This document shows, one piece after another, positions 2,607 through 58,538 of a DNA stretch of 64,000 nt. The notes beneath the pieces were generated by a model. That model was not told where the DNA came from. It searched no databases and was given only the letters and a program-made list of their open reading frames with translations. Within the stretch, counting starts at the first letter, position 1; every line of letters starts with the position of its first letter. The DNA is from an uncultured Gammaproteobacteria bacterium (GTDB taxonomy: Bacteria > Patescibacteriota > Patescibacteriia > UBA1558 > 2-01-FULL-52-15): positions 3,401 to 67,400 of the forward strand of contig CAYRBH010000005.1 in the NCBI GenBank assembly GCA_964422585.1, read 5' to 3'. The position numbers and the translations under genes were made by a program.

Positions 2607-3728
2607 ATGAACAAAGTGAACTGGAAGAACTTCAATTGGACCATCGGCGGATTCATCATCATCTACCAGAGTCTTTTTATACTCATAGTGCCGTTCTATC
2701 TGTACTTTTTTCCGCCGAAACTATCAATGCTGCTGTGGTCTTTGCTGCTGCTCGTCCTCACGGTATTCAGCATTGGGGTGTATCATCGGCACTATGCGCA
2801 TCGTGGCTATAAGCTCAGCAAATGGGTCGAGCCATTTTTCCTGTTCTTCGCGACAGCCGCCTTCCAAGGCAGTGCTATCTGGTGGTCGCATGATCATCGC
2901 AAGCATCATCATTTCGTTGATACCGATGGGGATCCTTATGCTATAAACAAGGGTTTTTGGCACGCGCATGTGCTGTGGCTATTGGAGCGACCCACGCCCA
3001 AAGAGGAAGAGCGCTATGTGCCAGATCTTCTGAAGAATAAGTTGCTCGTATTCCAAAACAAGTACTATCTACCGTTAGCGATTGGCACCAATGTTGTGCT
3101 GTGGCTCATTGGGGGCTTCCTGCTGCATGATTTTATCGGAGCATTCGTGTTGGCATGGTGGGGGAGGCTCTTCGTATCACATCATGTGACGTGGTTTATT
3201 AATTCGCTCGCGCATTATTGGGGCGAACGGACCTACTCGAAGGAGCACTCCGCGGTCGATAACTATATGATGGCATTCTTCACGGGCGGTGAAGGCTACC
3301 ATAACTACCATCACACATTTCCGGCTGACTATCGCAATGGGATTCGCTGGTATCATTTTGACCCGAATAAGTGGCTGGTCTGGACCTTGAGCAAGGTTGG
3401 TCTCGCGTCAGGGCTCCTGCGCTACCCTGAACATGCCATTCAGGAGCGTCTGCTGTTGGCAGATAAGGAATTATTTCTTGATAAACTTTCTAAGCGCGCT
3501 TATGCCAGCAAAGCTGAACTCGAGCAGCGCGTGCAGCAACTGGCCGCATCGATACAGGGGAAATTACATCGTATGCGGACGCTCGCCGATGAACGACGAG
3601 CCGCATTCAAAACAAAGCGCAAGGAGTTAGCTCGAGAATTGCGCGGCGTACGCAAGAGCATTCGCGCGGAATGGCGCCAATGGCATGAGATAGGACGGAC
3701 TATTGTCTATCCGCGCATTGTGCGGTAA
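2607..3728 (+). CDS. Membrane fatty-acid desaturase (stearoyl-CoA/acyl-lipid delta-9-type), with C-terminal coiled-coil extension
   Basis: Three His boxes HRHYAH, HDHRKHHH and HNYHHTF are in the canonical order and spacing within a polytopic N-terminal region. The extra ~90-aa K/R/E-rich C-terminal tail is not typical of the family. Confidence 0.85.
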   Translation: MNKVNWKNFNWTIGGFIIIYQSLFILIVPFYLYFFPPKLSMLLWSLLLLVLTVFSIGVYHRHYAHRGYKLSKWVEPFFLFFATAAFQGSAIWWSHDHRKHHHFVDTDGDPYAINKGFWHAHVLWLLERPTPKEEERYVPDLLKNKLLVFQNKYYLPLAIGTNVVLWLIGGFLLHDFIGAFVLAWWGRLFVSHHVTWFINSLAHYWGERTYSKEHSAVDNYMMAFFTGGEGYHNYHHTFPADYRNGIRWYHFDPNKWLVWTLSKVGLASGLLRYPEHAIQERLLLADKELFLDKLSKRAYASKAELEQRVQQLAASIQGKLHRMRTLADERRAAFKTKRKELARELRGVRKSIRAEWRQWHEIGRTIVYPRIVR

Positions 3729-3737
3729 GGTCTCCCT

Positions 3738-3944
3738 ATGGGATTACTACAAGATTTAGAGAGTGCCATCGGTTTTACTGGCTCTGATTCTGATAGCTAT
3801 CACGATTCAGGGCTTGCAGGCATCGGCCATGGTATAGCGCATGGTATACGGGATATCGCTCCAGCCGCGCTCGGCTTAGGTATTGTTGCCGCGGGATTCA
3901 AGATTATCACGAGCGGCCTTTCGGGCAGCAAGAAGAGGCGGTAA
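3738..3944 (+). CDS. Small Gly/His-rich hypothetical protein
   Basis: 68-aa ORF tightly packed between the desaturase and the prenyltransferase (10-bp gaps). GxxxG-rich with a basic C-terminus. No recognisable family. Confidence 0.25.
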   Translation: MGLLQDLESAIGFTGSDSDSYHDSGLAGIGHGIAHGIRDIAPAALGLGIVAAGFKIITSGLSGSKKRR

Positions 3945-3953
3945 TACGGAAGT

Positions 3954-5516
3954 ATGTTCGCCGGACTTCTGTCATCATTTCGTAAAGTAGTAGCGGCACT
4001 CGAGGATACTCGCGTGCCTTTTGTGTATAGTGTTTTGACTTTTTGCGGCTGTATTGCGCTGCGTACTTTTTTTGAAGTGCTGGTGACTCAGAACGATGTT
4101 ATCAAGCCGGTGATGTTCCTAGAGTATGTGATGCTCTATATAGTGCTCGCGCTTTGTATCATACTGCTCTTTAAGTTCGCCACGAAAAAATCAGCGGCTG
4201 TGCTGGCCCGCGTCGTACTGCCATTCTTCGCCATACTGCTGCTCGTGCCGCTCATTGATATACTTGCTGGCTGGAAGGGATATCCATTGATGTACTTAAT
4301 TCCAGAGATACATGGTCCGCTACTTCCACGCTTTTTCACTTTTTTTGGCAATGCGCCTGATGCTGGCGGTATTTCACTGGGCATGCGCATAGAGATGGCT
4401 CTCGCAATCATAGGCAGCGGGCTCTATTTCTATATAAGCACCTTGCAGAAAGCGCGGAGCATCATCTACGCGATAGCTGTCTATGTCATATTCTTCCTTC
4501 TGGCAGCGTCGCCGTATTGGATTGCGGCTATCTATCGCATCGCCGGTTTCTCGTATGATGGTATCAATCAGGTGTCAGATAGCATGTTCATTCGTTTCTT
4601 TTTGATCATCAGTGCCATAGTGACGGCAAGCATTGCCTATTTAGAGAATAAGCGTCTTTTTCACGTTCTGGTTAAGGATTTGCGGTTATTGCGCATAGCG
4701 CATTATGTGCTCATGATCCTTTTTGGCGTCATCCTTGGTATGCAGCGGGCATCGCATATATTCGGTATTGATCAGTTATTCGCGATGGTACTTATTCCAT
4801 TGGCCTTAGTATCGGCTGTTATCTTTTCGATTGTCATGAACAATACAGCTGATATTGAGATAGACCGCATAACGAATAGTGACCGTCCGTTAGTACAGAA
4901 TGAGGTAACCCTGCACACCTATCATGTTATCGGCTGGACCTTCTTCGTCCTGAGTCTCATATTCGCCGCCGCTGTATCTATGTACGCATTCTTTTTCATA
5001 GCGCTTTTCATCCTGGTCTATTTCCTGTATTCAATGCCGCCATTGCGATTGAAGCGCGTACCATTTTTTTCTAAAGTACTGATCGCGCTCAACACTCTGT
5101 TTATGACGATGCTCGGTTTCCTGAGTACGAGCAGGCTGACGATACTCGATTTCCCTTTTGGATTAGGATGCGGGATGGTCATCATGTATACATTCGCTGC
5201 CCAACTCATAGACCTGAAGGATTATGAGGGCGATAAGCGCGCCGGAATACAAACGCTCCCGGTTCTTCTGGGCCTGTCTACAGCTCGCCTGGTGATAGGG
5301 AGTATACTAGTGCTTGCTTATATGTCCGTCTACCTGCTGCTTCCAGATACTCTGCTGATTCTGCCTTTAGTAGTATTCGGCTGTCTACAGTTTCATTTTG
5401 TCATGAAGGTGCCTTATCATGAGAAGCCGATATTCGTGACCTATATCATAAGCCTCCTCATGCTATTGTTGTATTGCTGTACGATAGGAAGCGGTTTTGT
5501 ATCGGGTACTGCGTGA
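3954..5516 (+). CDS. UbiA-family prenyltransferase domain fused to an N-terminal polytopic membrane domain
   Basis: The C-terminal half carries the two Asp-rich UbiA motifs, NNTADIEIDRITNSDRP and DLKDYEGDKRAG, between hydrophobic helices. The N-terminal ~280 aa are additional transmembrane helices of unknown function. Confidence 0.65.
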   Translation: MFAGLLSSFRKVVAALEDTRVPFVYSVLTFCGCIALRTFFEVLVTQNDVIKPVMFLEYVMLYIVLALCIILLFKFATKKSAAVLARVVLPFFAILLLVPLIDILAGWKGYPLMYLIPEIHGPLLPRFFTFFGNAPDAGGISLGMRIEMALAIIGSGLYFYISTLQKARSIIYAIAVYVIFFLLAASPYWIAAIYRIAGFSYDGINQVSDSMFIRFFLIISAIVTASIAYLENKRLFHVLVKDLRLLRIAHYVLMILFGVILGMQRASHIFGIDQLFAMVLIPLALVSAVIFSIVMNNTADIEIDRITNSDRPLVQNEVTLHTYHVIGWTFFVLSLIFAAAVSMYAFFFIALFILVYFLYSMPPLRLKRVPFFSKVLIALNTLFMTMLGFLSTSRLTILDFPFGLGCGMVIMYTFAAQLIDLKDYEGDKRAGIQTLPVLLGLSTARLVIGSILVLAYMSVYLLLPDTLLILPLVVFGCLQFHFVMKVPYHEKPIFVTYIISLLMLLLYCCTIGSGFVSGTA

Positions 5517-5601
5517 AGGCATGCACGGGGAAGAGCAACCTTCGTTTACTGTTTCCGTGAAAGTAGGCTATACTGTAGTCATTCAGCATTAATAACATCC
5601 T

Positions 5602-7983
5602 ATGCGCCAAAAAGTATCTACCTATTTTTACGCTATCTTAGGCGTTTTGTTCGTTATAAGCTTTGGATATCTTTTCTTAACACAGCACCTCAACCCCACG
5701 ACGAATACGAATATCGAGCCGAATACGAACAGCAACGGATCACAGAATCCATCCACCACCACTGGTCCAGGCGCTTTGAAGCAATTCACGAGCTACGATG
5801 ATTTCAAGAAATTCATAACCGATAATTTGACCACGGCTGGCGTTGGTGGAGGGGTCGCGATGCATAGTCTTGCTTCGAATGCTGTCGGAGCAGCCCCTGC
5901 CGCGGCACCTGCTCCTGATACTGCGGGTACTGAGCAGAAAAGCCCTGATACCACCATTCCGGCCGGACCCGATTATTCCCAGACGAATATACAGGTCGCT
6001 GGGGTGGATGAAGCTGATATCATTAAGAGCGATGGAAGCTATTTCTATATCGTTTCAGGGAATAGTCTCGCTATCGTGCAGGCAACGCCTGCGGCCGACG
6101 CAAAGATCGTGAGTACGGTAGCGCTCACTGATTACCCGCAAGGCTTGTATATCAGCGACGATCATACGAAATTGGCAGTGTATGGTAGCCAAAATCAAGT
6201 GTACTATCCGATGGGAGCTGGTGCGAAAGTGATGGCTGGCGGCCCAGTGAGTACCATGATGCCTATTCGTGGCGGTTCGCAGCAGACGTTTTTCAAAGTC
6301 TACGATATTACCGATAAGACACAGCCGAAACTGATCAGGGATGTGAGTTTCGAGGGTTCGGCGACGGATTCTCGTATGGTCGGGAACTTCGTGTACTTTA
6401 TAACGCAGAAAAATGAATACAATTGGTTCGATGGTCCGTATCCGCTCCCGCGTATACTGGACAATGGGAAAGTTGTTGGTGGTGAGCCTGACTCAGCATC
6501 TTATCGTTTCCCGAGCGTCTATTATTTCCCCTTTCCCTATGACAGCTCGAATTTGACGACAGTCTCTGCCATCAATCTGATGGACGCGACCGCAGAGCTT
6601 ACTACTCAAAATTATGTGCTGGAGAACGGACAGCAGATCTACGTATCACCCGAAGATATCTATATAACGTATACGAAAAACCTCGACCAGCAGCAGATAG
6701 AGTATGACGCCATGAAGTCTGTCTATATGGATAAGCTGACTGCCGTCGAGAAGGGGGAAGTGCAGCAGATCGAAGCGGCACCGAACTATATTCTCAATAA
6801 GTATGAGCGCCAGCAAAAAGCGACCATCATATTCCAGAACCATCTGGCAGCATTACCAGAAGTGGAGCAGCAGAGTTTGGAGAAGATTTTCGAAGATACG
6901 GTCAAGCAGAAGTATCAAGAATTGGCTGATCAATTCGAGCAGACTAGCATCTATAGGATCGCTTTTAAGGATGGCGCCCTGACCTATCAGGGGACAGCGG
7001 ATGTGCCGGGAATGGTGATTAATCAGTTCGCGATGGATGAATCGAATGGTTATTTCAGGATCGCTACCACGAAGGATCCTGTGTGGATACCCTATACTGA
7101 TGGAGAGCAAACAGAGAAGCCATACAATAATCTCTATGTGTTAGGGCCTGATATGAAGCGTGTCGGTGCTGTGGAGCATCTAGCAGAGGGTGAGCAGATC
7201 TATTCGGTACGCTTCATGCAGAATAGAGCTTATATGGTCACCTTCAAGCAAGTCGACCCGCTCTTCGTGATAGACGTAGCGGACCCGACTGCTCCGAAGG
7301 TGCTCGGCACCCTCAATGTGCCTGGTTACTCAAGTTATTTGCATCCGCTTGATGAGAACACCTTGATAGGATTAGGCAAAGAAACTGAGACGAACCAGTT
7401 CGGCGCGGTGATACCTAAGGGTATCAAACTATCATTGTTCGACGTGACCGATGTAGCGAATCCGAAAGAGACCGCGAGCTATAGCTTCAATACGCAATCA
7501 TCCGATTCACCGGCTCTCTATGATCATAAAGCCTTCCTGTATTCAGGCACTAAGGACCTCCTTGTGATACCGCTGCAAGTCTGGTCAGCTGGATATGGTG
7601 CGCCGAAAGGACTCTCAGATAATTTCATGGGAGCTGCGGTATTCACGGTGACGAAAGACAGTATAGCCCTGAAAGGATTCGTGAAGCACGCGAGCGATGT
7701 GCAGAATGGTTACACCTATGATCAGTATGTGAAGCGGAGTATGTATATCGATGATGTTCTCTATACCCTTTCGGATGCGTATTTGAAGGCAAATAACCTT
7801 TCCGATTTGAAAGAGATCAAGAGCATCGCTTTGCCGGCACTCCAGCCAGTCCCTGTCCAAAACGAAACGAAGCCTTCGCAGGGAGGTGCAACTTCTGATG
7901 CTCCGCCCGCGCCTGCCAGCGTGCCGCCTGCGGCCGGTTCTGGTGGCAGCGCATCAGGCGCAGCAACATCGCCGACATATTAG
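5602..7983 (+). CDS. Secreted or membrane-anchored beta-propeller domain protein (COG4880-like), Pro/Ala-rich C-terminus
   Basis: An N-terminal hydrophobic anchor is followed by a T/N/P low-complexity linker. The long central region has repeated beta-strand-like blocks resembling the archaeal/CPR 'beta-propeller domain' family, and the tail is PAPASVPPAAGSGG-rich. Confidence 0.5.
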   Translation: MRQKVSTYFYAILGVLFVISFGYLFLTQHLNPTTNTNIEPNTNSNGSQNPSTTTGPGALKQFTSYDDFKKFITDNLTTAGVGGGVAMHSLASNAVGAAPAAAPAPDTAGTEQKSPDTTIPAGPDYSQTNIQVAGVDEADIIKSDGSYFYIVSGNSLAIVQATPAADAKIVSTVALTDYPQGLYISDDHTKLAVYGSQNQVYYPMGAGAKVMAGGPVSTMMPIRGGSQQTFFKVYDITDKTQPKLIRDVSFEGSATDSRMVGNFVYFITQKNEYNWFDGPYPLPRILDNGKVVGGEPDSASYRFPSVYYFPFPYDSSNLTTVSAINLMDATAELTTQNYVLENGQQIYVSPEDIYITYTKNLDQQQIEYDAMKSVYMDKLTAVEKGEVQQIEAAPNYILNKYERQQKATIIFQNHLAALPEVEQQSLEKIFEDTVKQKYQELADQFEQTSIYRIAFKDGALTYQGTADVPGMVINQFAMDESNGYFRIATTKDPVWIPYTDGEQTEKPYNNLYVLGPDMKRVGAVEHLAEGEQIYSVRFMQNRAYMVTFKQVDPLFVIDVADPTAPKVLGTLNVPGYSSYLHPLDENTLIGLGKETETNQFGAVIPKGIKLSLFDVTDVANPKETASYSFNTQSSDSPALYDHKAFLYSGTKDLLVIPLQVWSAGYGAPKGLSDNFMGAAVFTVTKDSIALKGFVKHASDVQNGYTYDQYVKRSMYIDDVLYTLSDAYLKANNLSDLKEIKSIALPALQPVPVQNETKPSQGGATSDAPPAPASVPPAAGSGGSASGAATSPTY

Positions 7984-8073
7984 CTGTTCAGAGAGTACCA
8001 GTTACAATAGCGTAGCCCTCCGTCGCTCTCCCGAATATCGGGAGTTGAACGGAGGGCTGTGCGTTGCCCGGCC

Positions 8074-8373
8074 TCAGGGAGAACCGGGGAAGTAGTGTTT
8101 GAGAGTGAGGAACGCCGCGATGACGATGATGAAAGCCAGCAGCAGGATCAGCCTGCCTGTGCCTGAAAGCCGATCTTCGTCGGTGTCCGCTCGCTCGCGC
8201 TCCCTTGCGAGAGCCTTTTCTTCTTCCAAGTCACTTGCGAGTCCCATCTCGTCCCCTGGAGCAAGCTCTTCGTCAGGAGAGCTTAACTCGCCTCTGCGGT
8301 GGAGCTCTAGTCGCTCAGACTTAGTGAGTAAGCTCATAGCCCCCTCTCTGGAATTGAAGAACGTTACGGTCAT
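8074..8373 (-). CDS. Hypothetical acidic protein with C-terminal transmembrane anchor
   Basis: 99-aa ORF with an E/D/R-rich coiled-coil-like N-terminus and a C-terminal LILLLAFIIVIAAFL helix. No homolog recognised. Confidence 0.3.
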   Translation of the reverse strand: MTVTFFNSREGAMSLLTKSERLELHRRGELSSPDEELAPGDEMGLASDLEEEKALARERERADTDEDRLSGTGRLILLLAFIIVIAAFLTLKHYFPGSP

Positions 8374-8682
8374 AGAAACATACTAGTATGCTCTTTTGCA
8401 AGTATTTGTCAATCCCGCGGGGGCATTTTCTACCTGGCGGAGTAGTTCGAGTATGCGTAGAACCTCGCCGTACAGCTTGGGGCGAGGTCCCTAATGCTTC
8501 TTGAGCAGGTAGCTGACTACAGTAATCTCTACCACTTTGATAGCGACCAACAGGATAATCGCCTTCCAAGTCAGGGACAAGAATCGCTGCAGGACATAGA
8601 CTGCTGCTCTTTTTAACATGATGCACCTCGAAAGAACGTTGGTCATCAAAGAATAAGACATCTATGTCATCATGTCGAGTAT

Positions 8683-8710
8683 TGCATTCTTATACAAAGA
8701 CAGGTAGTAT
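8683..8710 (+). promoter_or_regulatory. Candidate sigma70-like promoter for tRNA-Pro (TTGCAT-16 nt-TAGTAT)
   Basis: Hexamers TTGCAT (8683-8688) and TAGTAT (8705-8710) lie about 50 nt upstream of the tRNA 5' end. Pattern only. Confidence 0.25.
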
Positions 8711-8762
8711 GGTGTCTATGCTTTTCGTGGATCGAATGAAAAGCGATCCGGAACATATATCA

Positions 8763-8839
8763 CGGGGTGTGGCGCAGTTGGCTAGCGCGCAGCGTTCGGG
8801 ACGCTGAGGTCGCCCGTTCGAGTCGGGTCACCCCGACCA
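8763..8839 (+). tRNA. tRNA-Pro (anticodon CGG)
   Basis: Cloverleaf folded by hand: acceptor CGGGGTG/CACCCCG, D-stem GCGC/GCGC, anticodon stem CAGCG/CGCTG with loop TTCGGGA (CGG), T-stem GCCCG/CGGGT with loop TTCGAGT, discriminator A, encoded CCA. Confidence 0.85.
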
Positions 8840-8889
8840 TTCTTCGCTCCGGGAGAGCTTCGAATGGTAGTAGTATTACTTTTTGAATA

Positions 8890-9450
8890 ATGACAAAGAA
8901 AAAATCGGCACAGATCACTTTTTTAAAATCAGCACTCACTGACCACATGGTCGGGGCATGGTTCCGCAGTTCGCGGTTTGTCATCAATAAAATTTTGAAG
9001 CAACTGAAGCCAAGTTATCGCTACATTGTTGAATATGGAGCTGGCGATGGCGTCATAACCCAGGAGCTGTTGAAACGGCTTCCACGCGACGCCAAAGTGA
9101 TAGCCCTTGAGATAAATAAACTATTACTCGAGGAACTTCGTACCATCAAGGATTCCCGACTGGTGGTGCTGGATGCTAGTGTGGTCGATATGTCGAAGGA
9201 TTTCTCTAAATTCGGCTTGCCACGGATAGACGCTGTCATATCAGGCATACCTTTTACTTTTTTTTCAGCCACTGTTCGTAAGGAGATTATGCAGAATACC
9301 CATGATGGTCTTGTACCAGGCGGACGCTTCATTGTGTATCAGTATTCTCTGCTCATGTATGCGCATCTGAAGAAAGCATTTCCGAAACGACATTTCGTCT
9401 ATGAGCCGAGAAATGTATTGCCCTACTTTATTATGGTAGGGGAGAAGTAA
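8890..9450 (+). CDS. Class I SAM-dependent methyltransferase (KsgA/Erm-like fold, small)
   Basis: Motif I is VEYGAGDGVIT, followed by an acidic post-I residue (ALE) and LDASVVD. The size and motif order fit small rRNA adenine methyltransferase-like enzymes. Confidence 0.55.
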   Translation: MTKKKSAQITFLKSALTDHMVGAWFRSSRFVINKILKQLKPSYRYIVEYGAGDGVITQELLKRLPRDAKVIALEINKLLLEELRTIKDSRLVVLDASVVDMSKDFSKFGLPRIDAVISGIPFTFFSATVRKEIMQNTHDGLVPGGRFIVYQYSLLMYAHLKKAFPKRHFVYEPRNVLPYFIMVGEK

Positions 9451-15324: not shown

Positions 15325-16701
15325 ATGCATCCATCTATGAAAAGATTCATCATACAGATTATACTCTTCTATCTTCGTTTCTGGGCCCGTCTCGCGATAG
15401 CAGTGCATCGGCCTCTAGTCATTGGTATCGCGGGTTCTGTCGGTAAATCATCGACGAAACAGGTACTGTTGGCAGCCTTAAGTTCTTTCGGTAAGACGAT
15501 TGCCACTCAGGGCAACTCAGAAACAGGCTTGCCGCTTTCTATACTCGGTGTGCAGGTGGATGGATATCGGATGCTTGATTGGCTTCGCTATTTGTGGCAA
15601 GCGCCATTCGGCATCTTTAACCTGGTCGGCGTTGACTATCTTATTGCTGAGATGGGCATCGATAGTCCGAGGCCGCCGAAGAATATGAGGTATCTCTTGA
15701 CGATCGTGGAGCCCGATATCGCGGTCATCGTCCAAGAATCAGCGGCACACACCGAGGAATTCGAACAGCTACTGACGCCGGAGGAGCGGAAGCATTTGTC
15801 AGACGAGCAACGTCTCCGGCGATTAGTGCAGTTTATTATTGAGGAAGATATAATGATGGCACAGACGCAGCGCTGTACCAAGGTCATCTATAATGCCGAT
15901 ACTGAGGAGCTCGCGGCAGCTATATCTCAAATCCAACATGGAGGTAAGAAGTTTTTTGCTTTCGGCGCTTCGAATCACATGGATGCCTACTATCTGACTA
16001 CAGCGACTTCTCTTGATGAAACGCGTTTCGATATGATGGTGCTGGGCGCTCCGGTAACGGTCAGGTATGCTAAAGCGGTGTTACCTCGTGAGTACCAGGA
16101 AGTGACAGCCGCGGCATTGCTGGCATGTGCAGTATTGGGGTTGAATGTGAATCAAGCTGCCGCCGCGATAGAAAAAACGGTATCCCTGCCAAAAGGCCGC
16201 GCAAGCGTGTTCAAAGGTATTGCTGCTTCGACCATACTAGATTCTTCATATAATGCTTCACGAGAATCAGTCATGGCTTTCCTGGATCTTCTGGAGCAGT
16301 TAAAGAAGCAGACAGGCAGTGTTGTTATCTTTGCTTGTGGAGATATGCGGGAGCTGGGAGCAGAAGCAAAGATTGAGCATGCGGCAGTAGCGAACAGGAT
16401 CCTCGAAGTCGTAGATATCGCTTATTGTGTTGGTGCTGTAACCAAAGATTATGTCATGCCGCTTTTGCAGGATAAAGTTCCATCGAAGTGGTTTCAGAAT
16501 GCTCGCGAGCTGGGGGCGCATTTGAAAGAGCATATGCCTCAGGGAGCAATTGTGCTTTTCAAAGGCTCGCAGAATACTATCTTTCTGGAGGAAGCCATCA
16601 AGGCTGTTCTTGCTGACCCGAACGACGAAAGAAAACTCTGCAGACAAGAGGAATATTGGTTAGCTATGAAGAAGCGGCTTGGTTTTCTGAACGAAGCATA
16701 A
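15325..16701 (+). CDS. murF: Mur ligase, MurF-like (UDP-MurNAc-tripeptide:D-Ala-D-Ala ligase), N-terminal domain reduced to a hydrophobic segment
   Basis: P-loop IGIAGSVGKSSTK, DSSYNASRES (MurF DDSYNAN-like) and C-terminal ACGDMRELG (MurF GDMLELG-like). The P-loop sits at aa ~35, so the ~80-aa N-terminal domain of canonical MurF is missing. Confidence 0.7.
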   Translation: MHPSMKRFIIQIILFYLRFWARLAIAVHRPLVIGIAGSVGKSSTKQVLLAALSSFGKTIATQGNSETGLPLSILGVQVDGYRMLDWLRYLWQAPFGIFNLVGVDYLIAEMGIDSPRPPKNMRYLLTIVEPDIAVIVQESAAHTEEFEQLLTPEERKHLSDEQRLRRLVQFIIEEDIMMAQTQRCTKVIYNADTEELAAAISQIQHGGKKFFAFGASNHMDAYYLTTATSLDETRFDMMVLGAPVTVRYAKAVLPREYQEVTAAALLACAVLGLNVNQAAAAIEKTVSLPKGRASVFKGIAASTILDSSYNASRESVMAFLDLLEQLKKQTGSVVIFACGDMRELGAEAKIEHAAVANRILEVVDIAYCVGAVTKDYVMPLLQDKVPSKWFQNARELGAHLKEHMPQGAIVLFKGSQNTIFLEEAIKAVLADPNDERKLCRQEEYWLAMKKRLGFLNEA

Positions 16702-17899
16702 GCGCTTTCTCAACAGCTTTTCGCTCATCCCATGTAATCTCGCCTTCTGCCATCGCGAGTGATTGTTCATGGCCTTTCCCAGCAAGAACGATCGTGTCGC
16801 CTGGTTTCGCTATCTGTATGGCGAAGTCAATAGCTTGTTGTCGGTCAGGAATAGCATAGAGCAACTTCATGCCCGCAGGGGCTATCGTTCCTGGGTCAAG
16901 TTTGGTAAACCCAGCAATGCCTTGCGCTATCATCGCATTGATAGCAAGCACGTTCTCATCGCGAGGATCATCGGCAGTCAGTATGATAGTCGAAGCATAG
17001 CGAGCGGCAGCTCGGCCCATATCTGGGCGTTTTTTCGTGTCGCGTTTGCCGGCTGAACCGAAGAGCACGATGAGTCTGCCTTTGGTGGTTTCTTTCGCTG
17101 CCCGGAATATATTTTCAAGCGCGTTCGGCGTATGGGCGAAGTCAACAATAATGCGGAAGTCCTGATCATACACAATTTCTTGCCTTCCTTTCGGTGCGGT
17201 GAATGACTGGAGGCTCTGCACAATATCCTGCTTCGCAAGGCCGAGTTTCTCGGCGGCTGCGTAGGCTGCGAGCGCGTTCATCACATTGAATGAGCCAAGC
17301 AGCTGAAGTTTGAAAGGGTATTTCATCGGGGTATACTTCGCCTTTTGATTCACCGCCGAGTAACTGATGATCTTATCTGATCTCAATGTGCGCACTAAGA
17401 GTTCATAGGACCGGTCATCATAATTGATAATGGCGGTGTCCGCTGCTTTCAGCAAGATACATTTAGCCTGTGTATACCGTTCATAGGTTTTGTGATAATC
17501 CAGATGTTCATTCGTGATATTCGTCAGGATGCCTATGGAGAAATGGATGCCAGCGACACGGTTCTGATCCAATGCATGCGAGGTCGTCTCAAGCACGGCG
17601 TAGGTGCAGCCTTTTTGGACCGCGGTTCTTAGTAATTTTTGCACGGTGAAGGAAGAGGGTGTGGTGACGTGCAGACCAATAGCATACTGCTCATCATTGA
17701 TCAGTGCTCCGACAGTGGTAATGACGATACCTTTCTTCCCGGAGTCGCGGAGTATGCGATAGAGCATATGCGCGGTCGTCGTCTTGCCGTCAGTACCGGT
17801 AATGCCTACGACGGTAAGCTTCCGCGAGGGGAATCCATAGATCAGATTGGCTAGACAAGCCTGGATCAGATGATAGAAATTTTTGATAGATTGCCACAT
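16664..17899 (-). CDS. murE: Mur ligase, MurE-like (adds diamino acid), lacking canonical N-terminal domain
   Basis: P-loop VVGITGTDGKTTTAHML at aa ~33 and the MurE-specific DNPR-like motif LTADDPRDE near the C-terminus. There is no ~90-aa N-terminal UDP-binding domain. Confidence 0.75.
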   Translation of the reverse strand: MWQSIKNFYHLIQACLANLIYGFPSRKLTVVGITGTDGKTTTAHMLYRILRDSGKKGIVITTVGALINDEQYAIGLHVTTPSSFTVQKLLRTAVQKGCTYAVLETTSHALDQNRVAGIHFSIGILTNITNEHLDYHKTYERYTQAKCILLKAADTAIINYDDRSYELLVRTLRSDKIISYSAVNQKAKYTPMKYPFKLQLLGSFNVMNALAAYAAAEKLGLAKQDIVQSLQSFTAPKGRQEIVYDQDFRIIVDFAHTPNALENIFRAAKETTKGRLIVLFGSAGKRDTKKRPDMGRAAARYASTIILTADDPRDENVLAINAMIAQGIAGFTKLDPGTIAPAGMKLLYAIPDRQQAIDFAIQIAKPGDTIVLAGKGHEQSLAMAEGEITWDERKAVEKALMLRSENQAASS

Positions 17900-17901
17900 A
17901 C

Positions 17902-20505
17902 TTATTTCCCCCCTAGCATCTTCGCATATTTTTTGAATTCATTTCCTTTCTCTATGAAATTTTTCCACAGAGAATAGCTTGGCGATGCGGTTGACAGTAA
18001 ACAGATACTGCCTGGCTGAGTGTATTTGTAGGCAAAAGCGATTGCTCGTTCTATACTTCTCGTCTCAAATACCCTAAGTCCTTTCTGGGACTTGAGCATT
18101 CGCTTGCCGGTATCAGGAAACAGGACAATATTTCGTATCTTATATTTCCGTACGGTCTTCTCAAGTCGCGCAAAATCATAACCGCGATCTTCGCCACCCA
18201 GGAAAATCGTATCAACTTTTTTTAACGCTTTGATAGCCATAATGGTTGAATCAGGCGTTGTGGAAATAGCATCGTCATAGAAAGTAATTCCTTTGAACGT
18301 GCCAATGTTCTCAAGTCGATGGGGCAGCGGTTTGAAGTTCTTGATTCCTTTACGTATTGCCGCGTCTGAAATACCAAGCTGCCGGACAACTTTGATCGCG
18401 GCGCGTATATTCTGCATATTATGATCGCCAATGAGAGGAATGTCAGATTTTTTCAATGGGATTTTCGCATTGAAAGGCGCGACGATTGCGATATCCTGTG
18501 AACTCTGGAACCTGAATATATTTTTTTTCGCGGCATAGTAGTTCCCAAGTCCGCCATGATAGGTCATATGATCAGGGAAGAGATTGAGTAGTAGCGCGAT
18601 ATTCGGTGAATAGTCGATATCATCGAGCATATAGCTCGAAAGCTCTATGACAAAGATCTCTTTCGGATTAATTCTGGTAAGTAAAGTCGCGAGCATCGGA
18701 TTGCCGATATTGCCGACGAGCCGTACTTTTTTGCCAGCTGCTCGCAGCATCGCGTAGATGAGACTTACCGTCGTGCTTTTGCCCTTGGTGCCAGTAACAC
18801 CGATCGTGAAATTTTTATTCTCAGCGAAAAAGATATTGGTGGCCGTGGTATAGGGAATGGTGATTTTATATTTTGGTATGCCTGGTGTTTTGAGCGCAAG
18901 ATCATAGTGATCTTGTTTTGTGAGATAGTTTTTATCGAATTTCTGATCGAGGATCCCGATCTTCAGGTGAGGGTATTTTTTTCGTAGGTATTTTTCAGTG
19001 GCTTTTCCCTCGACATCATAGCCGATAATGCACACAGTCTTGATGCCAAGTAGTCTGAAGGACGCGGGTGTTGTTGGCGCTGGTTGCGTTTTGAATACTT
19101 CAGTAATGAGCGCGCGGCCATTTCGTATCTGAGGAAGAAAGGTTTTGACCACGAGACTTTCTTTGAAGTGTTTGGCCGCGAGGTAGAGTGCCGCGCGCGA
19201 CTCTTCGAAGGTGCCAACGCAATCAAATGGCTTATAGTTCCCGAAACCAAGGGTATTTTTATAAGTCAGCAGAAGTGTTTTGTCTTCGAAAAGATTCTTC
19301 CCAAATATGCTAATTAGTTTTTTCTTTGGAAGAAATGGCGCGAGTATCAGAAAAACGAAAGCGCATTTCGGACACGCGCCGCACCAGCGCGTATTCGGCG
19401 TAGTTTTCGCGCTAGCGGAGCTTCTATTACAGCTTGAGAAGAGTGAATGATACTTTGTATGCCTGGCGAACAGTTCCGCTATTCTTATTTCATATAATTG
19501 TCGCAGCAACGAGAAGTAGACAATGTCAGGGGTGATGAATTTCCTGGTGTAGTTTTGCAGTAATGCCTCGAATTCGGCGGATTTGCTCCATTGATGATTG
19601 ATCATGTCGCCACGATAGCGCGTGTTCCCGAAATTGCTGCTCTGCTCATTGCTCACAATGACGTACCTGTATTTATAGAGCGCTGCCGAGAGTAGGCCGA
19701 GGAACGCGAATATGGCTGAAATAGGGATATGTCCAGTATAACCCCCTTCATGTTTCTGAAGGATTTTCGGATCCAATATTCTTCGCAGCTGCAATGAAGG
19801 ATTTCCGATTTTTTGTATAACGGCTTTGGCTGTAGCATCTTTTCTCCGTGTCTCAATATGAAATGAGGTCACATCGAACTCATGCAGCAGCTCGGCAGAT
19901 ACAATAGAGTCTTTGCCACCGCCGATGCCGAGGAGTATTTTTTCAAACTGTCCAACTGGAGCGGCAGCAGTCTTGACGGTAGAGTAAGGGAAGCGGGCGA
20001 CATGTTGTGGATCAAGCCTATTCCGATAGAGGAATTCACCGAGACCTTTACGATAGACACTGTTCCAGAACTCAGCTTGTTCTTTCGACAGTTTGAAAGG
20101 CAGAGTTACCTTCGGCGGGCAATACAGTTTATAGTAGCTAATACCCAAGATGAGATGCAGCGGCTCGAGGAATTTCCGAAGTGTCTCGTGATCTAGTTTC
20201 TGAGACGGAGCTTTCGGGAGTATGACCCGCTCGGTAAAGGTAAGAGGCTTTCTATCTGAGAAGGTGATCTCATACGTAAAAGAAAAGGAGCGCCTCTGGG
20301 CGGTATAGGCGTATCCTCGGAAGTGAAATGCTTGGGCTTTTGGTCGCATAGTGAGCGCTGCAAGATGCGTAGTTATCCTACTGTACTTAGCGGAATTTTC
20401 CAAGAGAGCAGGGCTTCTTCCCTTTTTCGCAATAGTATGCAAATCTATAGCTGCTATGCGCAAGAAAAAACGATTCATCGTCATCTGCGACAATATCCGG
20501 AGCAC
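17902..20505 (-). CDS. Fusion protein: N-terminal PP-loop ATP-pyrophosphatase-like domain (~480 aa) + complete MurD-like ligase. Start codon uncertain (alternative Met would place it at 20349)
   Basis: The C-terminal ~380 aa carry a MurD Rossmann N-domain (KTVCIIGYDVEGKA), P-loop IGVTGTKGKSTT and GNIGNPML. The N-terminal half carries an SGGxDS-like PP-loop (LLGIGGGKDS) and a WCGACPKC cysteine cluster. Translated by eye. Confidence 0.7.
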   Translation of the reverse strand: MLRILSQMTMNRFFLRIAAIDLHTIAKKGRSPALLENSAKYSRITTHLAALTMRPKAQAFHFRGYAYTAQRRSFSFTYEITFSDRKPLTFTERVILPKAPSQKLDHETLRKFLEPLHLILGISYYKLYCPPKVTLPFKLSKEQAEFWNSVYRKGLGEFLYRNRLDPQHVARFPYSTVKTAAAPVGQFEKILLGIGGGKDSIVSAELLHEFDVTSFHIETRRKDATAKAVIQKIGNPSLQLRRILDPKILQKHEGGYTGHIPISAIFAFLGLLSAALYKYRYVIVSNEQSSNFGNTRYRGDMINHQWSKSAEFEALLQNYTRKFITPDIVYFSLLRQLYEIRIAELFARHTKYHSLFSSCNRSSASAKTTPNTRWCGACPKCAFVFLILAPFLPKKKLISIFGKNLFEDKTLLLTYKNTLGFGNYKPFDCVGTFEESRAALYLAAKHFKESLVVKTFLPQIRNGRALITEVFKTQPAPTTPASFRLLGIKTVCIIGYDVEGKATEKYLRKKYPHLKIGILDQKFDKNYLTKQDHYDLALKTPGIPKYKITIPYTTATNIFFAENKNFTIGVTGTKGKSTTVSLIYAMLRAAGKKVRLVGNIGNPMLATLLTRINPKEIFVIELSSYMLDDIDYSPNIALLLNLFPDHMTYHGGLGNYYAAKKNIFRFQSSQDIAIVAPFNAKIPLKKSDIPLIGDHNMQNIRAAIKVVRQLGISDAAIRKGIKNFKPLPHRLENIGTFKGITFYDDAISTTPDSTIMAIKALKKVDTIFLGGEDRGYDFARLEKTVRKYKIRNIVLFPDTGKRMLKSQKGLRVFETRSIERAIAFAYKYTQPGSICLLSTASPSYSLWKNFIEKGNEFKKYAKMLGGK

Positions 20506-23658: not shown

Positions 23659-25035
23659 ATGGATGATGCTGATCAGCCTATCAATCCAAGCGCACCGGAA
23701 CAGCCGCGAGACTCTGCTGACCGTATGGCCCAAGAAACGCGTATCCGCTTAGAGTTGCAGCGGAGGCTTTCGTATAGCGATGAAGCGCAGGTGCTGTCTG
23801 AAAAAGTAGGGAGTTCTCGGGGTAGGCATCGACTGCGGAAACTCCTCATTTTTTTGGTATTAGTCTGCGGTATTTTTATAATTGGCGCGCTGGCATTAAA
23901 TATGGCCATCGTCCCTCGTGTCATAGCTGGACTGCCGAGCTTCATTCGGGTACCGTATCAAACACTTCCTGGCTACAAGAGGACGATCAGTGGTTCAGTC
24001 GATTATTATCCGCCATTGGTGGTAAGTCCCACAAAGACAGGTATTTCAGAGTTCGATCATGGAGCGTCATTCTCGTTCATATCGAGCGCAGATGTGCTCT
24101 CGCACAAAGGGATCGAGGGTGTTCTCAGGCTTGATATCAATAAGACTCAGGCAAGCACAGCGGCAAGCGATATTGATGTGGGGTATAAGGTCTTGTTCCC
24201 GCAGAAGCAGGGGACTGGCATTTACTTTTTCTTTAACCACTGGCCTTCATACCTACAAGACTTGGGAATCGCCGGTGACAGTCGTGGTATATGGTTTGGT
24301 TATGATTCTCAAGATAAGCAAACTTCCCAGCCAGATATCAATGAACTCCTTGGTCTCCTGAATCCAGAGAGCAATCAGCAGGGCGCCCAGCATTTTATCA
24401 ATGCTCTCTGGACCTATGCTTCTGCGAAAGGCGCTTTACAATGGAAAGTGCAGCGACTTTTCTATAGCTTATCTGATGGCACCCGCGCCGCTGATATACA
24501 GGTGTCTATAGATCCTGATACATTTCCCTCAACGATCGCTGCTTTTGTGAAAGATCCTTCGTATACCGGAGATATCAAGGCCATCGGTGATTCGCCGGTT
24601 GCCGGCACCACCGTTGCCGGCCTGCTTGGATCGATACGTTCATTGACCGGCCTTATCACGGTTGGCATCACTGATCATTTTATCCATCAGGCGGTGTGGA
24701 ATTTCGATATTAATGATCCGGCTGCAGGCACCTATCGTGGCACTGTCACCTCAGCCCTTGATCTTGTACAGGCCAAGAAAGATATTGTGAAACCTCAGCA
24801 GACTAAGAGTGCGATAGATATCCTTGACTTAATCGCAACAGGAACGCCGGATCTGACTCCGGCGACTGTGGCAACCACGACCGATTCGGATGGGGATGGT
24901 CTCAGTGATAGCGATGAGATAAATAAATATCACACGGATCCGTTCGTAGCTGACACCGATCATGACGGGTTCAGCGACGGCGCTGAGGTGCGGATGGGGT
25001 ATAATCCCTTAGGACCAGGGAAGCTGAAGCAGTAA
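23659..25035 (+). CDS. N-terminally anchored surface protein with C-terminal tandem DxDxDG calcium-binding repeats (thrombospondin-type-3/dockerin-like)
   Basis: A TM helix at aa ~60-85, a large extracytoplasmic domain, and a C-terminal DSDGDGLSDSDE...DTDHDGFSDGAEV pair. Confidence 0.5.
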   Translation: MDDADQPINPSAPEQPRDSADRMAQETRIRLELQRRLSYSDEAQVLSEKVGSSRGRHRLRKLLIFLVLVCGIFIIGALALNMAIVPRVIAGLPSFIRVPYQTLPGYKRTISGSVDYYPPLVVSPTKTGISEFDHGASFSFISSADVLSHKGIEGVLRLDINKTQASTAASDIDVGYKVLFPQKQGTGIYFFFNHWPSYLQDLGIAGDSRGIWFGYDSQDKQTSQPDINELLGLLNPESNQQGAQHFINALWTYASAKGALQWKVQRLFYSLSDGTRAADIQVSIDPDTFPSTIAAFVKDPSYTGDIKAIGDSPVAGTTVAGLLGSIRSLTGLITVGITDHFIHQAVWNFDINDPAAGTYRGTVTSALDLVQAKKDIVKPQQTKSAIDILDLIATGTPDLTPATVATTTDSDGDGLSDSDEINKYHTDPFVADTDHDGFSDGAEVRMGYNPLGPGKLKQ

Positions 25036-32348: not shown

Positions 32349-33101
32349 ATGCCGCAGAGTAAGAACAGTGGACCGGGGCATGGTATTGGGTTCCGTTCGC
32401 AGCCGCGAGGTGTACAAGCGTTATTGGTTGCGGTTGCTTTCTTCGGAGCAGCTTCACTCGGCTATGGAGCATATGCCATTCAAGATAAATTGGTCAGCCC
32501 TTTCAAAGCAAGTGTCATAACATCCGATAAGGTTTTGAATGAAATACTGCCCACGGCTGATCAGGGCGCGCTCGCGTCAAAGACCAAAGATACTGATGGC
32601 GACGGATTGAGCGATTATGACGAAGTGGCTATCTATAATACGAGTCCATATCTCGCTGATACTGATGGCGATGGTATTCCTGACGGGGTTGAAGTGAAGA
32701 ACGGTACTGATCCGAACTGCCCCCAGGGCCAAGTATGCAATGGTTTGCGGCTCGTAACACCTGATACGAAGATCTCTGATCTGTTCCCGCAGTTCTCTAC
32801 CTCGAATGTTACGTTGAAAGATAAGACGGTTCAGGAATTTAGGCAGATACTGCTGGCTCAGGGATTCGATAAAGCTAAACTTGATCAGATCAGTGATAAT
32901 ACCTTGCTCATCATACTGCAGGAGAGCTTGAAGGCTCAGGATGAGGCGCAAGGCACCAGCACCCCGACCACCACGGATGCGATCACGGTAGGAGATTATG
33001 ATCAGCTTCGCTTGCTTCTCGTCGATATGGGCGTGCCTCATGATGAGGTGTATAGCATGAGCAATCAAGATATACAGAATATGCTGAAGACATTCAAGTA
33101 G
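32349..33101 (+). CDS. N-terminally anchored protein with tandem DxDxDG calcium-binding repeats, immediately upstream of the giant protein
   Basis: A TM helix (LLVAVAFFGAASLGYGAYA), then DTDGDGLSDYDE...DTDGDGIPDGVEV. This is the same motif pair as in 23659..25035. Confidence 0.5.
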   Translation: MPQSKNSGPGHGIGFRSQPRGVQALLVAVAFFGAASLGYGAYAIQDKLVSPFKASVITSDKVLNEILPTADQGALASKTKDTDGDGLSDYDEVAIYNTSPYLADTDGDGIPDGVEVKNGTDPNCPQGQVCNGLRLVTPDTKISDLFPQFSTSNVTLKDKTVQEFRQILLAQGFDKAKLDQISDNTLLIILQESLKAQDEAQGTSTPTTTDAITVGDYDQLRLLLVDMGVPHDEVYSMSNQDIQNMLKTFK

Positions 33102-33114
33102 GACCAGAATATCC

Positions 33115-36100
33115 ATGCAGGCACCAAAAACAAACCGCAAACTATTCTTACGCCTTGTCGCCACCGTTTTTTGTTTGAGTATCTTTTTGATAGCAGCACC
33201 GCTCAAGCCGGTGCATGCGCAGCTCTCTGTTTTTGATCCTCAGCAGTTCGTGGAGACGATCAAGGAGTATATCGCGAAATTGAAAGATATCTCTTGGAGG
33301 CAAGCGGCGACCGTAGCTTTGGATAAAGCAGCTTCGAGCTTCATCAATAAACTAGCTCAAGACGCTGGCAACTACTTAGCTACCGGGGGCAAGGGGCAGA
33401 GCAGCCTGGTCCGCCGCGAGTCATTCGGCTCTATTTTAAGGAAGGATGGCGAGGCGGCATTGGGCAATTTCGTCCAAGATCTCTCATCAGAAACACAGCT
33501 TGATAAGCTTGGCTTAAACTTATGTAATCCGTCGGCGCAGCTCAAAGCAAATATTAGCTTGCAGCTTTTGGACGCTGGCCAGCCAGTGCCACTCGGGGCT
33601 GCCGGCTGTAATATCCGGGATATTCAGGCCAATTGGCAGCGATTCGCTCAGAATGCCGGCGTCGTCAATGTGAATGTGACCACCGGCAGTCAGCTGGGTA
33701 TCAGTGGCGGCGCAATTTATGGAGCACCGACAGCGGGGACTTGTCAGACCTCGAAAGGCCAATGTGTGCTTTCAGGATCGAACGCTTCATATGCCGGCTA
33801 CTGCGAGCAGCTTTCTTCATCAAGCCAGCAGCTGCAGACCTACTGTAATACGAAAGCCGATTGCGCAGGAGGAGCGAACTGTATCATCGTAACGGGAGAT
33901 TGTTCTAGTAATGCCGATTGTAAAGGAGGCTCGACATGTAATCTCGTCAGCGGAGGGTCATGCTTCACTGATAGTGATTGTTCTGGTGTAGGAGCGAGAT
34001 GTGTCGGCGCCACCAGCGCATCAAGTGGTGTGCCTTGGCTCGACATCACTAAAGATTTCTCACCAGCTGAAAAACTAAAGACTCTGAATGACCTCTTCTC
34101 GCCTCAACAGAGTGATCTCGGTGCTTATACATTGCTTTCCACCAAAGAAGCTGAGCTGCAGGCAGCAGAAGAAAAATATAAGACCCTCGACCTCTCGACC
34201 TGTAATGCTTACAAAGATGTTGGTTCGAAGATCACTGATGACTATGTCCATCAGAACTGTGATGAGATAAAGGCGTTAGCAGCGAAAACCGCTCCACCAT
34301 CGACAGCCGAGGAAACGCAGGCATTGAAGAGTCAGGGCGATAATGGCTTTTGGCTCAATGCGGCCAAGATCTTCGGCCGTTCACTCATCTCAGGCTTGCT
34401 GAAGAAATATATCAAGGCAGGTTCTTTCTCGCTGGCGCAACTCGGACAGCAAACCGATCTCAGTCAGGTGCGGGAGAATATCGTACAGCAGCTTCGCGGC
34501 GGAGTCACCTCACCGTTGAATGCTTTACAAGTGACGAATACATTGTCTACCGACCAGAAGCCGTCATTGGATAAAGTCGATAATTTCGATTATATCGCTA
34601 CCTTCTCACAGTGTCCTGATGACCGTACGCTTGTTGAGCTTGATAACTGTACTCTCGATGATAACTTTGCTTCTGCGATCCGTGACAAGAAAACTGTCGG
34701 AGATGCATTGGCTGATGGCACACTGCGGGGCGATTTGCCGCTTATCTCCGACCTCAATACAAGCCTTGATGGCGATCCATTCTGTGTAAGGAGTGGTTAT
34801 TGCCATAGCAATATCGTGCGTCTGCGTAAGTATCGCGTGTTGCCAGTCGGTTGGGAGATCGCTGCGTCCCTGAGTCCGATAGACGCGCCAATCACGCTGC
34901 AGGATGCGGTCGACTGTTTCGATAATAATGGTAAGTGCAAGCTTGATCCAGCCTCGAATATCTACTATCACTTGATCGACCCGAATTGGGTATTGAAGGC
35001 GCCGGAAACGCAATGTAAGGCAATGGTCTATGGTCCGAAGCCTCTCAGTACTGAAGTAGCTGAACGTCAGCAGTATTGTGCGGATGGTGTTTCTTGTCTG
35101 GCGGAGGATGATAACGGCACCTGTACTGGCGGCTATGGTTACTGCACGAAAGAGAGCAATATCTGGCGCTTCAATGGTGAGCAGTGCCCAATGCAGTATG
35201 CCAGCTGCACGACGTATACGCGCACCAGCGATAAGCAGGTATTTTCCTATTTGAGCAATTCGGTCGACACCTGTGACGCTTCGGAGAATGGCTGTCAGTG
35301 GTATTCGAAGAGCCAGGATAATGTCGGCACGGTGGATCAGCCGCAGTATGTATGGAATCCACATGACCGCATTTATTTCAATAAGAATGTCGCGACCTGC
35401 GAAGCTGATCAGGTCGGCTGTAATGAGTATGTCTCATTGCTCACGCCTGGCGTCAACTTAGTCACGAACGGCGACTTCGATTATTTCACGGCTTCTTCGT
35501 CGACGAATTTTTCAGATCCGAATTGGATGAACGATACTCTGCCGGACACCTTCGATGGCTGGCAGGGCACGGCTAATGCGTTCACGACTCGCGATAATGC
35601 ATACTATGGATCTGTCGGCTTGCATTTACAGGGTGGCGGCAGGCTTTCGACGAATGTGATAACCGGCATTTTGGCTGACAAGACCTACATACTATCGTGG
35701 TATGCGAAGTCGGCGAGCGGTAATGACTGCACGACCGACGTATCTATCGCTTCCCCGGGTTCTCCGGCCCAGAGTACGACCGTCACCTATACGAAAGATT
35801 GGAAGCGCTTCGAGCTCTCGAAGAGCTTCGATGTGAATGCTCAGGATACCCAAGCGACCATCTCGTTCTCAGGCAACTGTGCAGCCCCGACGGCGAGCGA
35901 TATGTATATTGATGGAGTGAAGTTCGAGCTGAATAATCAATCGTCCGGTTTCACGCAGTATGCTGAGAATGGGAAGACTTATCTCAAGTCACAGAACCAG
36001 TGTACGAAAGATGATGTCGGATGTGATATGTATACGGCGACTGATAGCGGGATCAAGGTACCAGGTAAGATCGATTCGAACGACATTTGTCCGGCTGAGT

Positions 36101-42966: not shown

Positions 42967-42968
42967 GC

Positions 42969-45527: not shown

Positions 45528-45571
45528 ACGTTTTTTGTAGCTACACCTGAAATTAACAAACAAAAAGAAAC

Positions 45572-51502: not shown

Positions 51503-51504
51503 CA

Positions 51505-54543: not shown

Positions 54544-54554
54544 ATACTACTCGT

Positions 54555-55145: not shown

Positions 55146-55154
55146 TAACTACCT

Positions 55155-55736: not shown

Positions 55737-55737
55737 T

Positions 55738-57617: not shown

Positions 57618-57619
57618 GT

Positions 57620-58525: not shown

Positions 58526-58538
58526 TTTTGAATTAGAA

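Follow-up and report, generated by a model that had tools for sequence, protein, structure and literature searches.

The window analyzed here (64,000 nucleotides of contig CAYRBH010000005.1, assembly GCA_964422585.1, from an uncultured bacterium placed in the Patescibacteriota) carries on its reverse strand a single open reading frame (ORF) in which a Mur ligase is preceded by a second module of 433 residues. This arrangement raises the question of what the two halves do together, and how D-glutamate (D-Glu) comes to be in the peptide stem of the cell wall. A preliminary description of the ORF at 17902..20505 had reported the motifs GIGGGKDS and WCGACPKC, both of which are present in the translation, and had proposed a PP-loop ATPase-like domain fused to MurD, possibly as a MurL-MurD2-type route to D-Glu or, failing that, an undescribed MurD accessory domain. 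We find it likely that the gene encodes a bifunctional enzyme for both steps of the MurD2/MurL route to stem-peptide D-Glu. The homology of the two halves, the PP-loop/QueC-like fold of the first, the residue signature of the second, gene order, and operon context are the basis of this assignment, with the chemistry taken by analogy from the Xanthomonas oryzae enzymes. X. oryzae MurL carries out a unidirectional epimerization in which ATP is consumed and AMP is formed (PMC8788868). In the work of Feng et al. (2017), as relayed by PMC8788868 and PMC5808125, the X. oryzae proteins are XOO_1319 (MurL) and XOO_1320 (MurD2), and orthologues from Micromonospora, Salinispora, and Stenotrophomonas were assayed. 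Residue numbers refer throughout to the 815-residue form of the fusion, which starts at ATG 20349.

By its sequence, the N-terminal module is a MurL. The NCBIfam model for MurL, NF041275 (UDP-N-acetyl-alpha-D-muramoyl-L-alanyl-L-glutamate epimerase), matches this part with an E-value of 5.8e-102 (341.5 bits; profile positions 6-413 of 447). A MurL profile in turn reached PP-loop enzymes, with which the preliminary description had suggested a comparison. Given the NF041275 match, the fallback of an undescribed accessory domain is unnecessary. The local Pfam release, which is without the MurL families, detects only Mur_ligase_M and Mur_ligase_C; the MurL domain names come from hits of a newer release on homologues of the fusion, which carry precomputed PF26299 (MurL_N) and PF26298 (MurL_epimerase_C). 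The module is 31-35% identical, over ~420-430 aligned residues, to MurL from loci of taxa with a demonstrated pathway. Further, 72 MurL proteins from murL-murD2 loci share 134 columns with a conservation of 90% or more; the module is identical at 94 of these and keeps all polar motif residues among them (GGGKDS, R190, H207, NHQWSK, E261, R283, SCN, WC..CPKC, and KPF.CVG..E). Conservation figures for the MurL family, given with the motifs in Table 1, refer to 134 family sequences. The four-cysteine cluster is presumed to be a metal site, and we take the grouping of C307, C323, C326, and C329 to resemble the zinc site of QueC. Cys377 is a candidate acid/base, donating or accepting a proton, for the epimerization step.

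MurL has been described as a protein without known conserved domains that needs one ATP equivalent and yields AMP (PMC5808125; PMC8788868). A phmmer search of the MurL half against PDB sequences returned nothing at E <= 1. A profile of 16 diverse MurL sequences matched the PP-loop enzymes TtuA (E 3.1e-4), MJ0690, MnmA, and NAD synthetase in the PDB. The TtuA and MJ0690 alignments fall on the PP-loop (vplGGGKDS against vaVSGGKDS), and the GGGKDS of MurL aligns with the SGGKDS of TtuA, MJ0690, and MnmA, with five of six positions shared. The AlphaFold2 model of residues 1-470, built with 134 family members, has a predicted local distance difference test score (pLDDT) of 96.0 and a predicted template modeling score (pTM) of 0.94, and Foldseek matches the MurL model to TtuA and Cap9 at E 1.7e-4 to 8.5e-4. 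Because the profile match, the confident model, and the Foldseek result agree, the PP-loop nature of MurL that had been raised as a possibility can be accepted: as modeled, MurL has a PP-loop ATPase fold with a QueC-like core. PP-loop enzymes adenylate their substrate, splitting ATP into AMP and pyrophosphate (PPi). The fold fits the ATP-to-AMP stoichiometry reported for MurL (PMC8788868).

The closest solved folds to the MurL model are QueC and Cap9, which share with it the PP-loop ATPase fold and a C-x2-C-x2-C cysteine cluster after the core. The likeness is distant: only 15-17% of aligned residues are identical to MurL in structural superposition, QueC is absent from the matches of the MurL sequence and profile searches of the PDB, and MurL has an extra N-terminal domain of ~130 residues and a C-terminal helical region of ~100 residues. 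The reactions also differ, the MurL substrate being a UDP-sugar dipeptide and the outcome epimerization rather than amide or nitrile formation. QueC adenylates a carboxylate, and QueC and Cap9 form amide or nitrile products. By analogy with QueC, the MurL-like module could have diverged and taken on a different reaction that depends on adenylation, such as amidation of the Glu alpha-carboxylate of the stem peptide to iso-glutamine, and the score of the module under the NCBIfam equivalog cutoff would be in keeping with such a change. We consider this very unlikely, given the identity to MurL from taxa with the demonstrated pathway, the retention of every conserved polar motif residue of those proteins, and the linkage to the same type of ligase in the same order from Proteobacteria to the candidate phyla radiation (CPR). 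Nor is there any hint in the sequence of an ammonia-delivering partner.

The second half of the protein, to which we turn with the N-terminal module taken as an epimerase, matches solved MurD structures in the PDB at E 2.7e-48. In the full-length model, Foldseek aligns it to MurD structures at E 2e-28, with a target-normalized TM score of up to 0.77 against closed, ligand-bound E. coli MurD. It had been described as a complete MurD-like ligase. Indeed, all three Mur ligase domains are present and the catalytic residues K115, N138, H183, and K198 (E. coli numbering) are kept, but the central domain lacks about 40 residues: the ligase half has 382 residues against 437, its alignment to 3lk7 (Streptococcus agalactiae MurD) skips residues 229-268, and Pfam Mur_ligase_M matches over positions 1-121 of 200 only. 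The model TIGR01087 (murD; cutoff 211.95) scores 240.6 bits on the whole protein and 245.8 bits on the module alone. A Stenotrophomonas maltophilia MurD2 orthologue, used as a control, also passes (297.7 bits), so that passing this "D-glutamate ligase" cutoff is uninformative; NCBIfam holds no MurD2-specific model.

More can be read from the residues that distinguish ligases for L-glutamate (L-Glu) from those for D-Glu. X. oryzae MurD2 differs from E. coli MurD by D182->E197, K348->R358, A414->P433, and L416->F435; E197D alters the stereospecificity of MurD2, E197D/R358K turns it into a D-Glu ligase, and E. coli MurD K319T accepts L-Glu (PMC8788868). We aligned the ligase half with E. coli MurD, 78 MurL-linked ligases, and 119 fused homologues. 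At E. coli positions 182/319/348/414/416, E. coli MurD reads DKKAL, the MurL-linked ligases EIRPF (61 sequences), EIRPY (12), or DIRPF (2), and the fused homologues EIRPY (95) or DIRPY (12). The ligase half in the window reads DIRPY. By this comparison it is MurD2-like at four of the five diagnostic positions (I, R, P, and Y), among them the two positions at which the groups are most clearly separated. Ile at 319 and Pro at 414 occur in 76 and 75 of the 78 MurL-linked ligases, respectively. Lys and Ala stand there in each of the five canonical MurD of solved structure (E. coli, Pseudomonas aeruginosa, Acinetobacter baumannii, S. agalactiae, and Thermotoga maritima). Arg at 348 is not specific alone, since S. 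agalactiae MurD has it too. Together with the NF041275 match and the gene order described below, these residues support the proposed MurL-MurD2-type fusion.

Several observations weigh against this assignment. The 341.5 bits of the MurL module are far under the curated equivalog cutoff of NF041275 (700), a model that is Xanthomonadales-specific; unfused MurL family members with a GC-rich-type amino acid composition also fall under it, at 243-571 bits. In the ligase half, the residue equivalent to E197 of X. oryzae MurD2 is Asp593 rather than Glu. At position 182, 76 of the 78 MurL-linked ligases and 104 of the 119 fused homologues have Glu; the counts for Asp are 2 and 15, respectively. Because E197D altered stereospecificity, the ligase half might accept D-Glu besides, or instead of, L-Glu. 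Bit scores against the ligase half (193 for the best MurL-linked ligase, 145 for the median, 168 for S. agalactiae MurD, and 118 for E. coli MurD) do not settle its clade membership in a comparison that covered few canonical MurD. Within the window, ORFs of at least 150 residues contain no Asp_Glu_race or class-IV aminotransferase domain (the 3283-residue ORF at 33115..42966 and shadow ORFs overlapping larger genes excluded), but the status of murI and of a D-amino-acid aminotransferase is thereby covered for these 64 kb only and not for the rest of the genome. Saccharimonas, a CPR lineage, is reported to have an active MurI, according to a reference cited in PMC11974145. Lastly, the fused proteins are known from sequence and models, not from biochemistry.

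Alternatively, the ligase half might be an ordinary MurD adding D-Glu obtained from murI, an aminotransferase, or a host, with the MurL module serving only in repair or proofreading, by turning occasional product with mis-ligated L-Glu into the D form. The Asp at the D182 position is that of E. coli MurD, the module passes the TIGR01087 cutoff, a murI may lie beyond the 64 kb inspected, and Streptococcus mutans MurD, a D-Glu enzyme with Arg at 348, takes L-Glu to a slight extent (PMC8788868). We nevertheless judge such a repair function improbable. Ile and Pro replace the Lys and Ala that mark the solved canonical enzymes, the TIGR01087 cutoff is passed by a MurD2 orthologue as well, and most close fused homologues have Glu where this protein has Asp, an exchange that is also found among proteobacterial MurL-linked ligases. 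A permanent 1:1 fusion of 433 residues would also be costly for occasional repair in so reduced a genome. With Asp593, the ligase may have relaxed stereospecificity; the end product would be unchanged with a unidirectional epimerase attached.

Gene order in relatives ties the two halves together. We examined 80 loci with unfused MurL, from Stenotrophomonas, Xanthomonas, Dyella, Rhodanobacter, Lysobacter, Emcibacter, other Alphaproteobacteria, and one Solirubrobacteraceae metagenome-assembled genome (MAG). In 78 of them a MurD-like ORF directly follows murL on the same strand, an order identical to the domain order of the fusion. Unfused loci from uncultured bacteria have the same murL-ligase order, with overlaps of 4-14 nucleotides, and one of those unfused MurL clusters holds a Woesebacteria-labeled member. 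On this comparative evidence, the fusion is derived from the widespread adjacent, overlapping pair murL-murD2 and would be the end state of a translationally coupled pair. In one unfused locus (GCA_016648615.1, genes 6001..9095), the next gene past the ligase, on the other strand, encodes an inorganic pyrophosphatase; this adjacency may be coincidence, though MurL should release PPi.

Such short overlaps mean that a single-base error could join two genes, and the long ORF might then reflect a chimeric assembly or a frameshift. This is extremely unlikely, since the best 120 homologues, from many independent assemblies, are all fusions of 767-861 residues with a conserved linker-free junction (P428...G443), and the model is confident across the junction. 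There, the conserved MurL C terminus (P428) runs directly into the first strand of the Rossmann-like domain of the ligase (IKTVCIIGY from residue 436); the module boundary was set at residues 433/434, window positions 19050/19051. One apparent fusion elsewhere was rejected: at a locus of the Rhodanobacteraceae MAG UBA703 (L030, 3462..6576), a stop-free stretch of 1038 codons over murL and murD2 resembles a fusion, but its frame starts at 3463 and the tblastn match to MurL (3464..4783) lies in another frame, so that the ORF is an artifact of GC-rich DNA.

The genuine fusions lie among cell wall genes. The window protein itself has no recorded contigs, and the context in relatives was taken from a 70%-identical homologue and others. 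On the 633-kb contig of that 70%-identical homologue, the arrangement is spoU, the fusion, murE, and murF, as in the window. In other Patescibacteria the fusion is found either between a murE-like gene and murC or two genes past mraY-ftsW-murG, where mraY and ftsW have no separate murD between them. No separate murD was found in the ~20-kb stretches around the fusion in relatives. Because the fusion sits in mur contexts without a separate murD, it fills the housekeeping murD role.

The mechanical ORF at 17902..20505 is 867 residues long from a GTG, and its translation holds LLGIGGGKDSIV and RWCGACPKCAFVF. Its start had been left between 20505 and 20349. The database protein identical to the fusion has 815 residues, as expected for the ATG-20349 form; 119 homologues of 767-861 residues align over 92-100% of this form, and the MurL profile match begins only at residue 56 of the 867-residue form. 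A SpoU-type methyltransferase gene, divergent from the fusion, has its ATG at 20456 (+). Three points make ATG 20349 almost certainly the true start: the homologue lengths, the onset of the profile match, and the 156-nucleotide extension, which would reach into the divergent spoU-type gene. Scanned for promoters and terminators, the stretch at 15.2-21 kb showed weak consensus matches only, none of them convincing in the 106-nucleotide divergent region. Downstream, the ATG of murE lies 2 nucleotides past the fusion stop codon, a junction read from the sequence, and for this reason the two genes are probably co-transcribed. The murE product has only 411 residues, and its alignment to TIGR01085 (472 positions) begins near position 71; its N-terminal UDP-binding domain seems to be absent despite the score of 396 bits. 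The murF-like gene is convergent with murE, their 3' ends overlapping by 38 nucleotides. Coordinates are collected in Table 1.

Table 1. Features of the fusion gene and its neighbors (window coordinates; residues of the 815-residue form)
Feature	Position	Strand	Remarks
MurL-MurD2-type fusion, coding sequence	17902..20349	-	815 residues; ATG 20349 and stop TAA 17902-17904 read from sequence; homologues
MurL module, residues 1-433	19051..20349	-	
MurD2-type Mur ligase module, residues 434-815	17905..19050	-	N-terminal Rossmann-like, central ATPase, and C-terminal domains
PP-loop-like motif GIGGGKDS, residues 141-148	19906..19929	-	presumed ATP pyrophosphate-binding loop; G145 invariant; G143, G144, K146, D147, S148 at least 90%
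Motif NHQWSKS, residues 251-257	19579..19599	-	H252, K256 invariant; N251, Q253, S255, S257 at least 90%
Cysteine cluster SSC307N + WC323GAC326PKC329	19363..19437	-	S306, N308, K328 invariant; C307, W322, C323, C326, C329 at least 90%
Cysteine motif WCGACPKC, residues 322-329	19363..19386	-	
Motif KPFDC377VGTFEE	19201..19233	-	P374, C377, V378 invariant; K373, G379, E383 nearly invariant
Mur ligase P-loop GVTGTKGKST, residues 517-526	18772..18801	-	K115 equivalent conserved in 199/199 aligned sequences
FPD593H594MTYHG	18553..18579	-	Asp at E. coli D182 position; His = H183
YDDAI695STTP	18253..18279	-	Ile in place of Lys (E. coli K319)
LGGEDR722GYDF	18172..18201	-	Arg at E. coli K348 (X. oryzae MurD2 R358)
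STASP790SY792SLWKNF	17956..17994	-	Pro, Tyr at E. coli A414, L416 (MurD2 P433, F435)
Spurious 5' extension, GTG 20505	20350..20505	-	covered by no homologue or profile; divergent intergenic region towards spoU
murE	16664..17899	-	TIGR01085 396 bits; NF001126 374.5 bits (cutoff 373)
murF-like ligase	15325..16701	+	TIGR01143 166 bits, under cutoff 288.6; Pfam Mur_ligase_M and Mur_ligase_C

The two modules suggest a reaction sequence. The C-terminal ligase would first add L-Glu, as taken from X. oryzae MurD2. At the PP-loop site of the MurL module, a second ATP would then adenylate the alpha-carboxylate of the terminal L-Glu, with release of PPi; this would acidify the alpha-proton and allow the alpha-carbon to be inverted. 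Alpha-carboxyl adenylation was proposed by the discoverers of the pathway, and we infer it here together with the role of Cys377, the metal site, and channeling. It is well known from peptide chemistry that activating the carboxyl group of an N-acylated C-terminal residue can cause racemization through an oxazolone, and an oxazolone could, speculatively, be the route of inversion. The product of murE would then add the diamino acid. The fusion probably holds the two activities at 1:1 and passes the L-Glu intermediate on directly. The full-length model (815 residues; pLDDT 93.5, pTM 0.88) suggests a compact two-enzyme body with a fixed mutual arrangement, which is compatible with direct hand-over. 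A bolder version of this proposal, tentative and in our view somewhat short of an even chance, is that in a large share of the Patescibacteria the fusion is the sole source of cell wall D-Glu and no free D-glutamate is made, with the L-Glu intermediate channeled to a QueC-type adenylation site, inversion carried out by the invariant Cys and the Cys4 metal site, and the Asp593 variant representing a relaxed ligase tolerated by the epimerase.

The distribution of the fusion bears on how the pathway is viewed. The MurD2/MurL route has been listed for Xanthomonadales, a few Alphaproteobacteria, and Micromonosporaceae, its discoverers regarding it as limited to relatively few genera and promoting MurD2/MurL as a narrow-spectrum antibiotic target (PMC8788868). 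"Low similarity" MurL orthologues in a fungus, cyanobacteria, and an amoeba are listed in reviews (PMC8788868, PMC5808125). The fusion is common in Patescibacteria. In a 90%-identity collection, 1826 proteins match the fusion at E <= 1e-5; the best 120 of these, the full-length fusions described above, come from independent Parcubacteria, Uhrbacteria, Moranbacteria, and Paceibacteria assemblies. The MurL family comprises 2637 clusters at 50% identity, and about 20 of the best 150 are of fusion length. Cluster look-ups gave almost no taxon names, which leaves the taxonomy of unfused members outside the named loci vague. The MurL-MurD2 pathway thus reaches far beyond the taxa given in the literature, and the case for a narrow-spectrum target needs to be qualified.

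The pathway, both enzyme families, and the Pfam and NCBIfam MurL models are already known. The fused architecture, Patescibacteria as a host phylum, and the assignment of a QueC-like fold appear to be new, while the underlying chemistry is not. Our literature search found no mention of the fusion or of MurL in CPR bacteria or Patescibacteria, although a remark in the original 2017 JACS paper is possible, and no recognition of MurL as a QueC-like PP-loop enzyme. Databases label the fusion mostly as "Mur ligase family protein," "UDP-N-acetylmuramoylalanine-D-glutamate ligase," or "hypothetical"; of the entries listed, a single one, from JGI, names the epimerase. Under such labels the epimerase goes unnoticed, and the stereochemistry of the substrate is probably misstated. 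The fusion offers independent evidence, of the Rosetta-stone type, that the two activities cooperate, as well as a single-chain object for structural study of intermediate hand-over. The QueC-like fold gives the proposed alpha-carboxyl adenylation a structural basis, and it points to K146, D147, C377, and the cysteine cluster.

Elsewhere in the window, lipid-modifying genes at 2607..7983 (+) are unexpected for a reduced CPR-type genome; this region holds a fatty-acid desaturase (2607..3728), a UbiA-family prenyltransferase with an N-terminal extension of ~260 residues (3954..5516), and a 793-residue Beta_propel protein (5602..7983). Bacterial TSP3 (thrombospondin type 3-like) repeat proteins, probably calcium-binding surface proteins, are encoded at 23659..25035 and 32349..33101 (+), one of them syntenic in a relative (locus L082). 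The giant ORF of 3283 residues at 33115..42966 (+) is followed by ORFs of 852 and 431 residues (region 33115..46867), and these two smaller ones have no Pfam match. A type IV secretion/conjugation-like cluster at 50186..59651 (+) includes a PrgI-family gene (51505..51966), a TraG/VirB4-like P-loop ATPase (52636..54543), a DsbA-like thioredoxin (56967..57617), and two T4SS_pilin genes (57620..58525 and 58539..59651).

Compared with known systems, the fusion is closest to the X. oryzae pair. It shares with X. oryzae MurL and MurD2 both protein families, the order of murL before the ligase, the MurL motifs, and, in the ligase, I, R, P, and an aromatic residue at E. coli positions 319/348/414/416, and the overall reaction is presumed by analogy to be the same: L-Glu ligation, then ATP/AMP-dependent unidirectional epimerization. 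It differs in being one linker-free polypeptide from a Patescibacteria (CPR) host, in a ligase half shorter by ~55-90 residues, in the Asp that replaces the specificity-determining Glu197, and in a MurL module with an identity of only about 35% to proteobacterial MurL. With canonical MurD, the ligase half has in common the three-domain Mur ligase fold, the four catalytic residues, and passage of the TIGR01087 cutoff; relative to the E. coli enzyme it shows K319->I, K348->R, A414->P, and L416->Y, the central-domain deletion, and the fused MurL, and it probably takes L-Glu. NCBIfam also describes Mur fusions, namely MurE/MurF (NF008896), MurC/Ddl (NF011171), and MurF/alanine racemase (NF008897), in which, as here, consecutive steps or a step that supplies a D-amino acid are fused to a Mur ligase. 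None of these contains MurL, and in the fusion described here inversion would follow ligation and act on the nucleotide-peptide rather than on the free amino acid.

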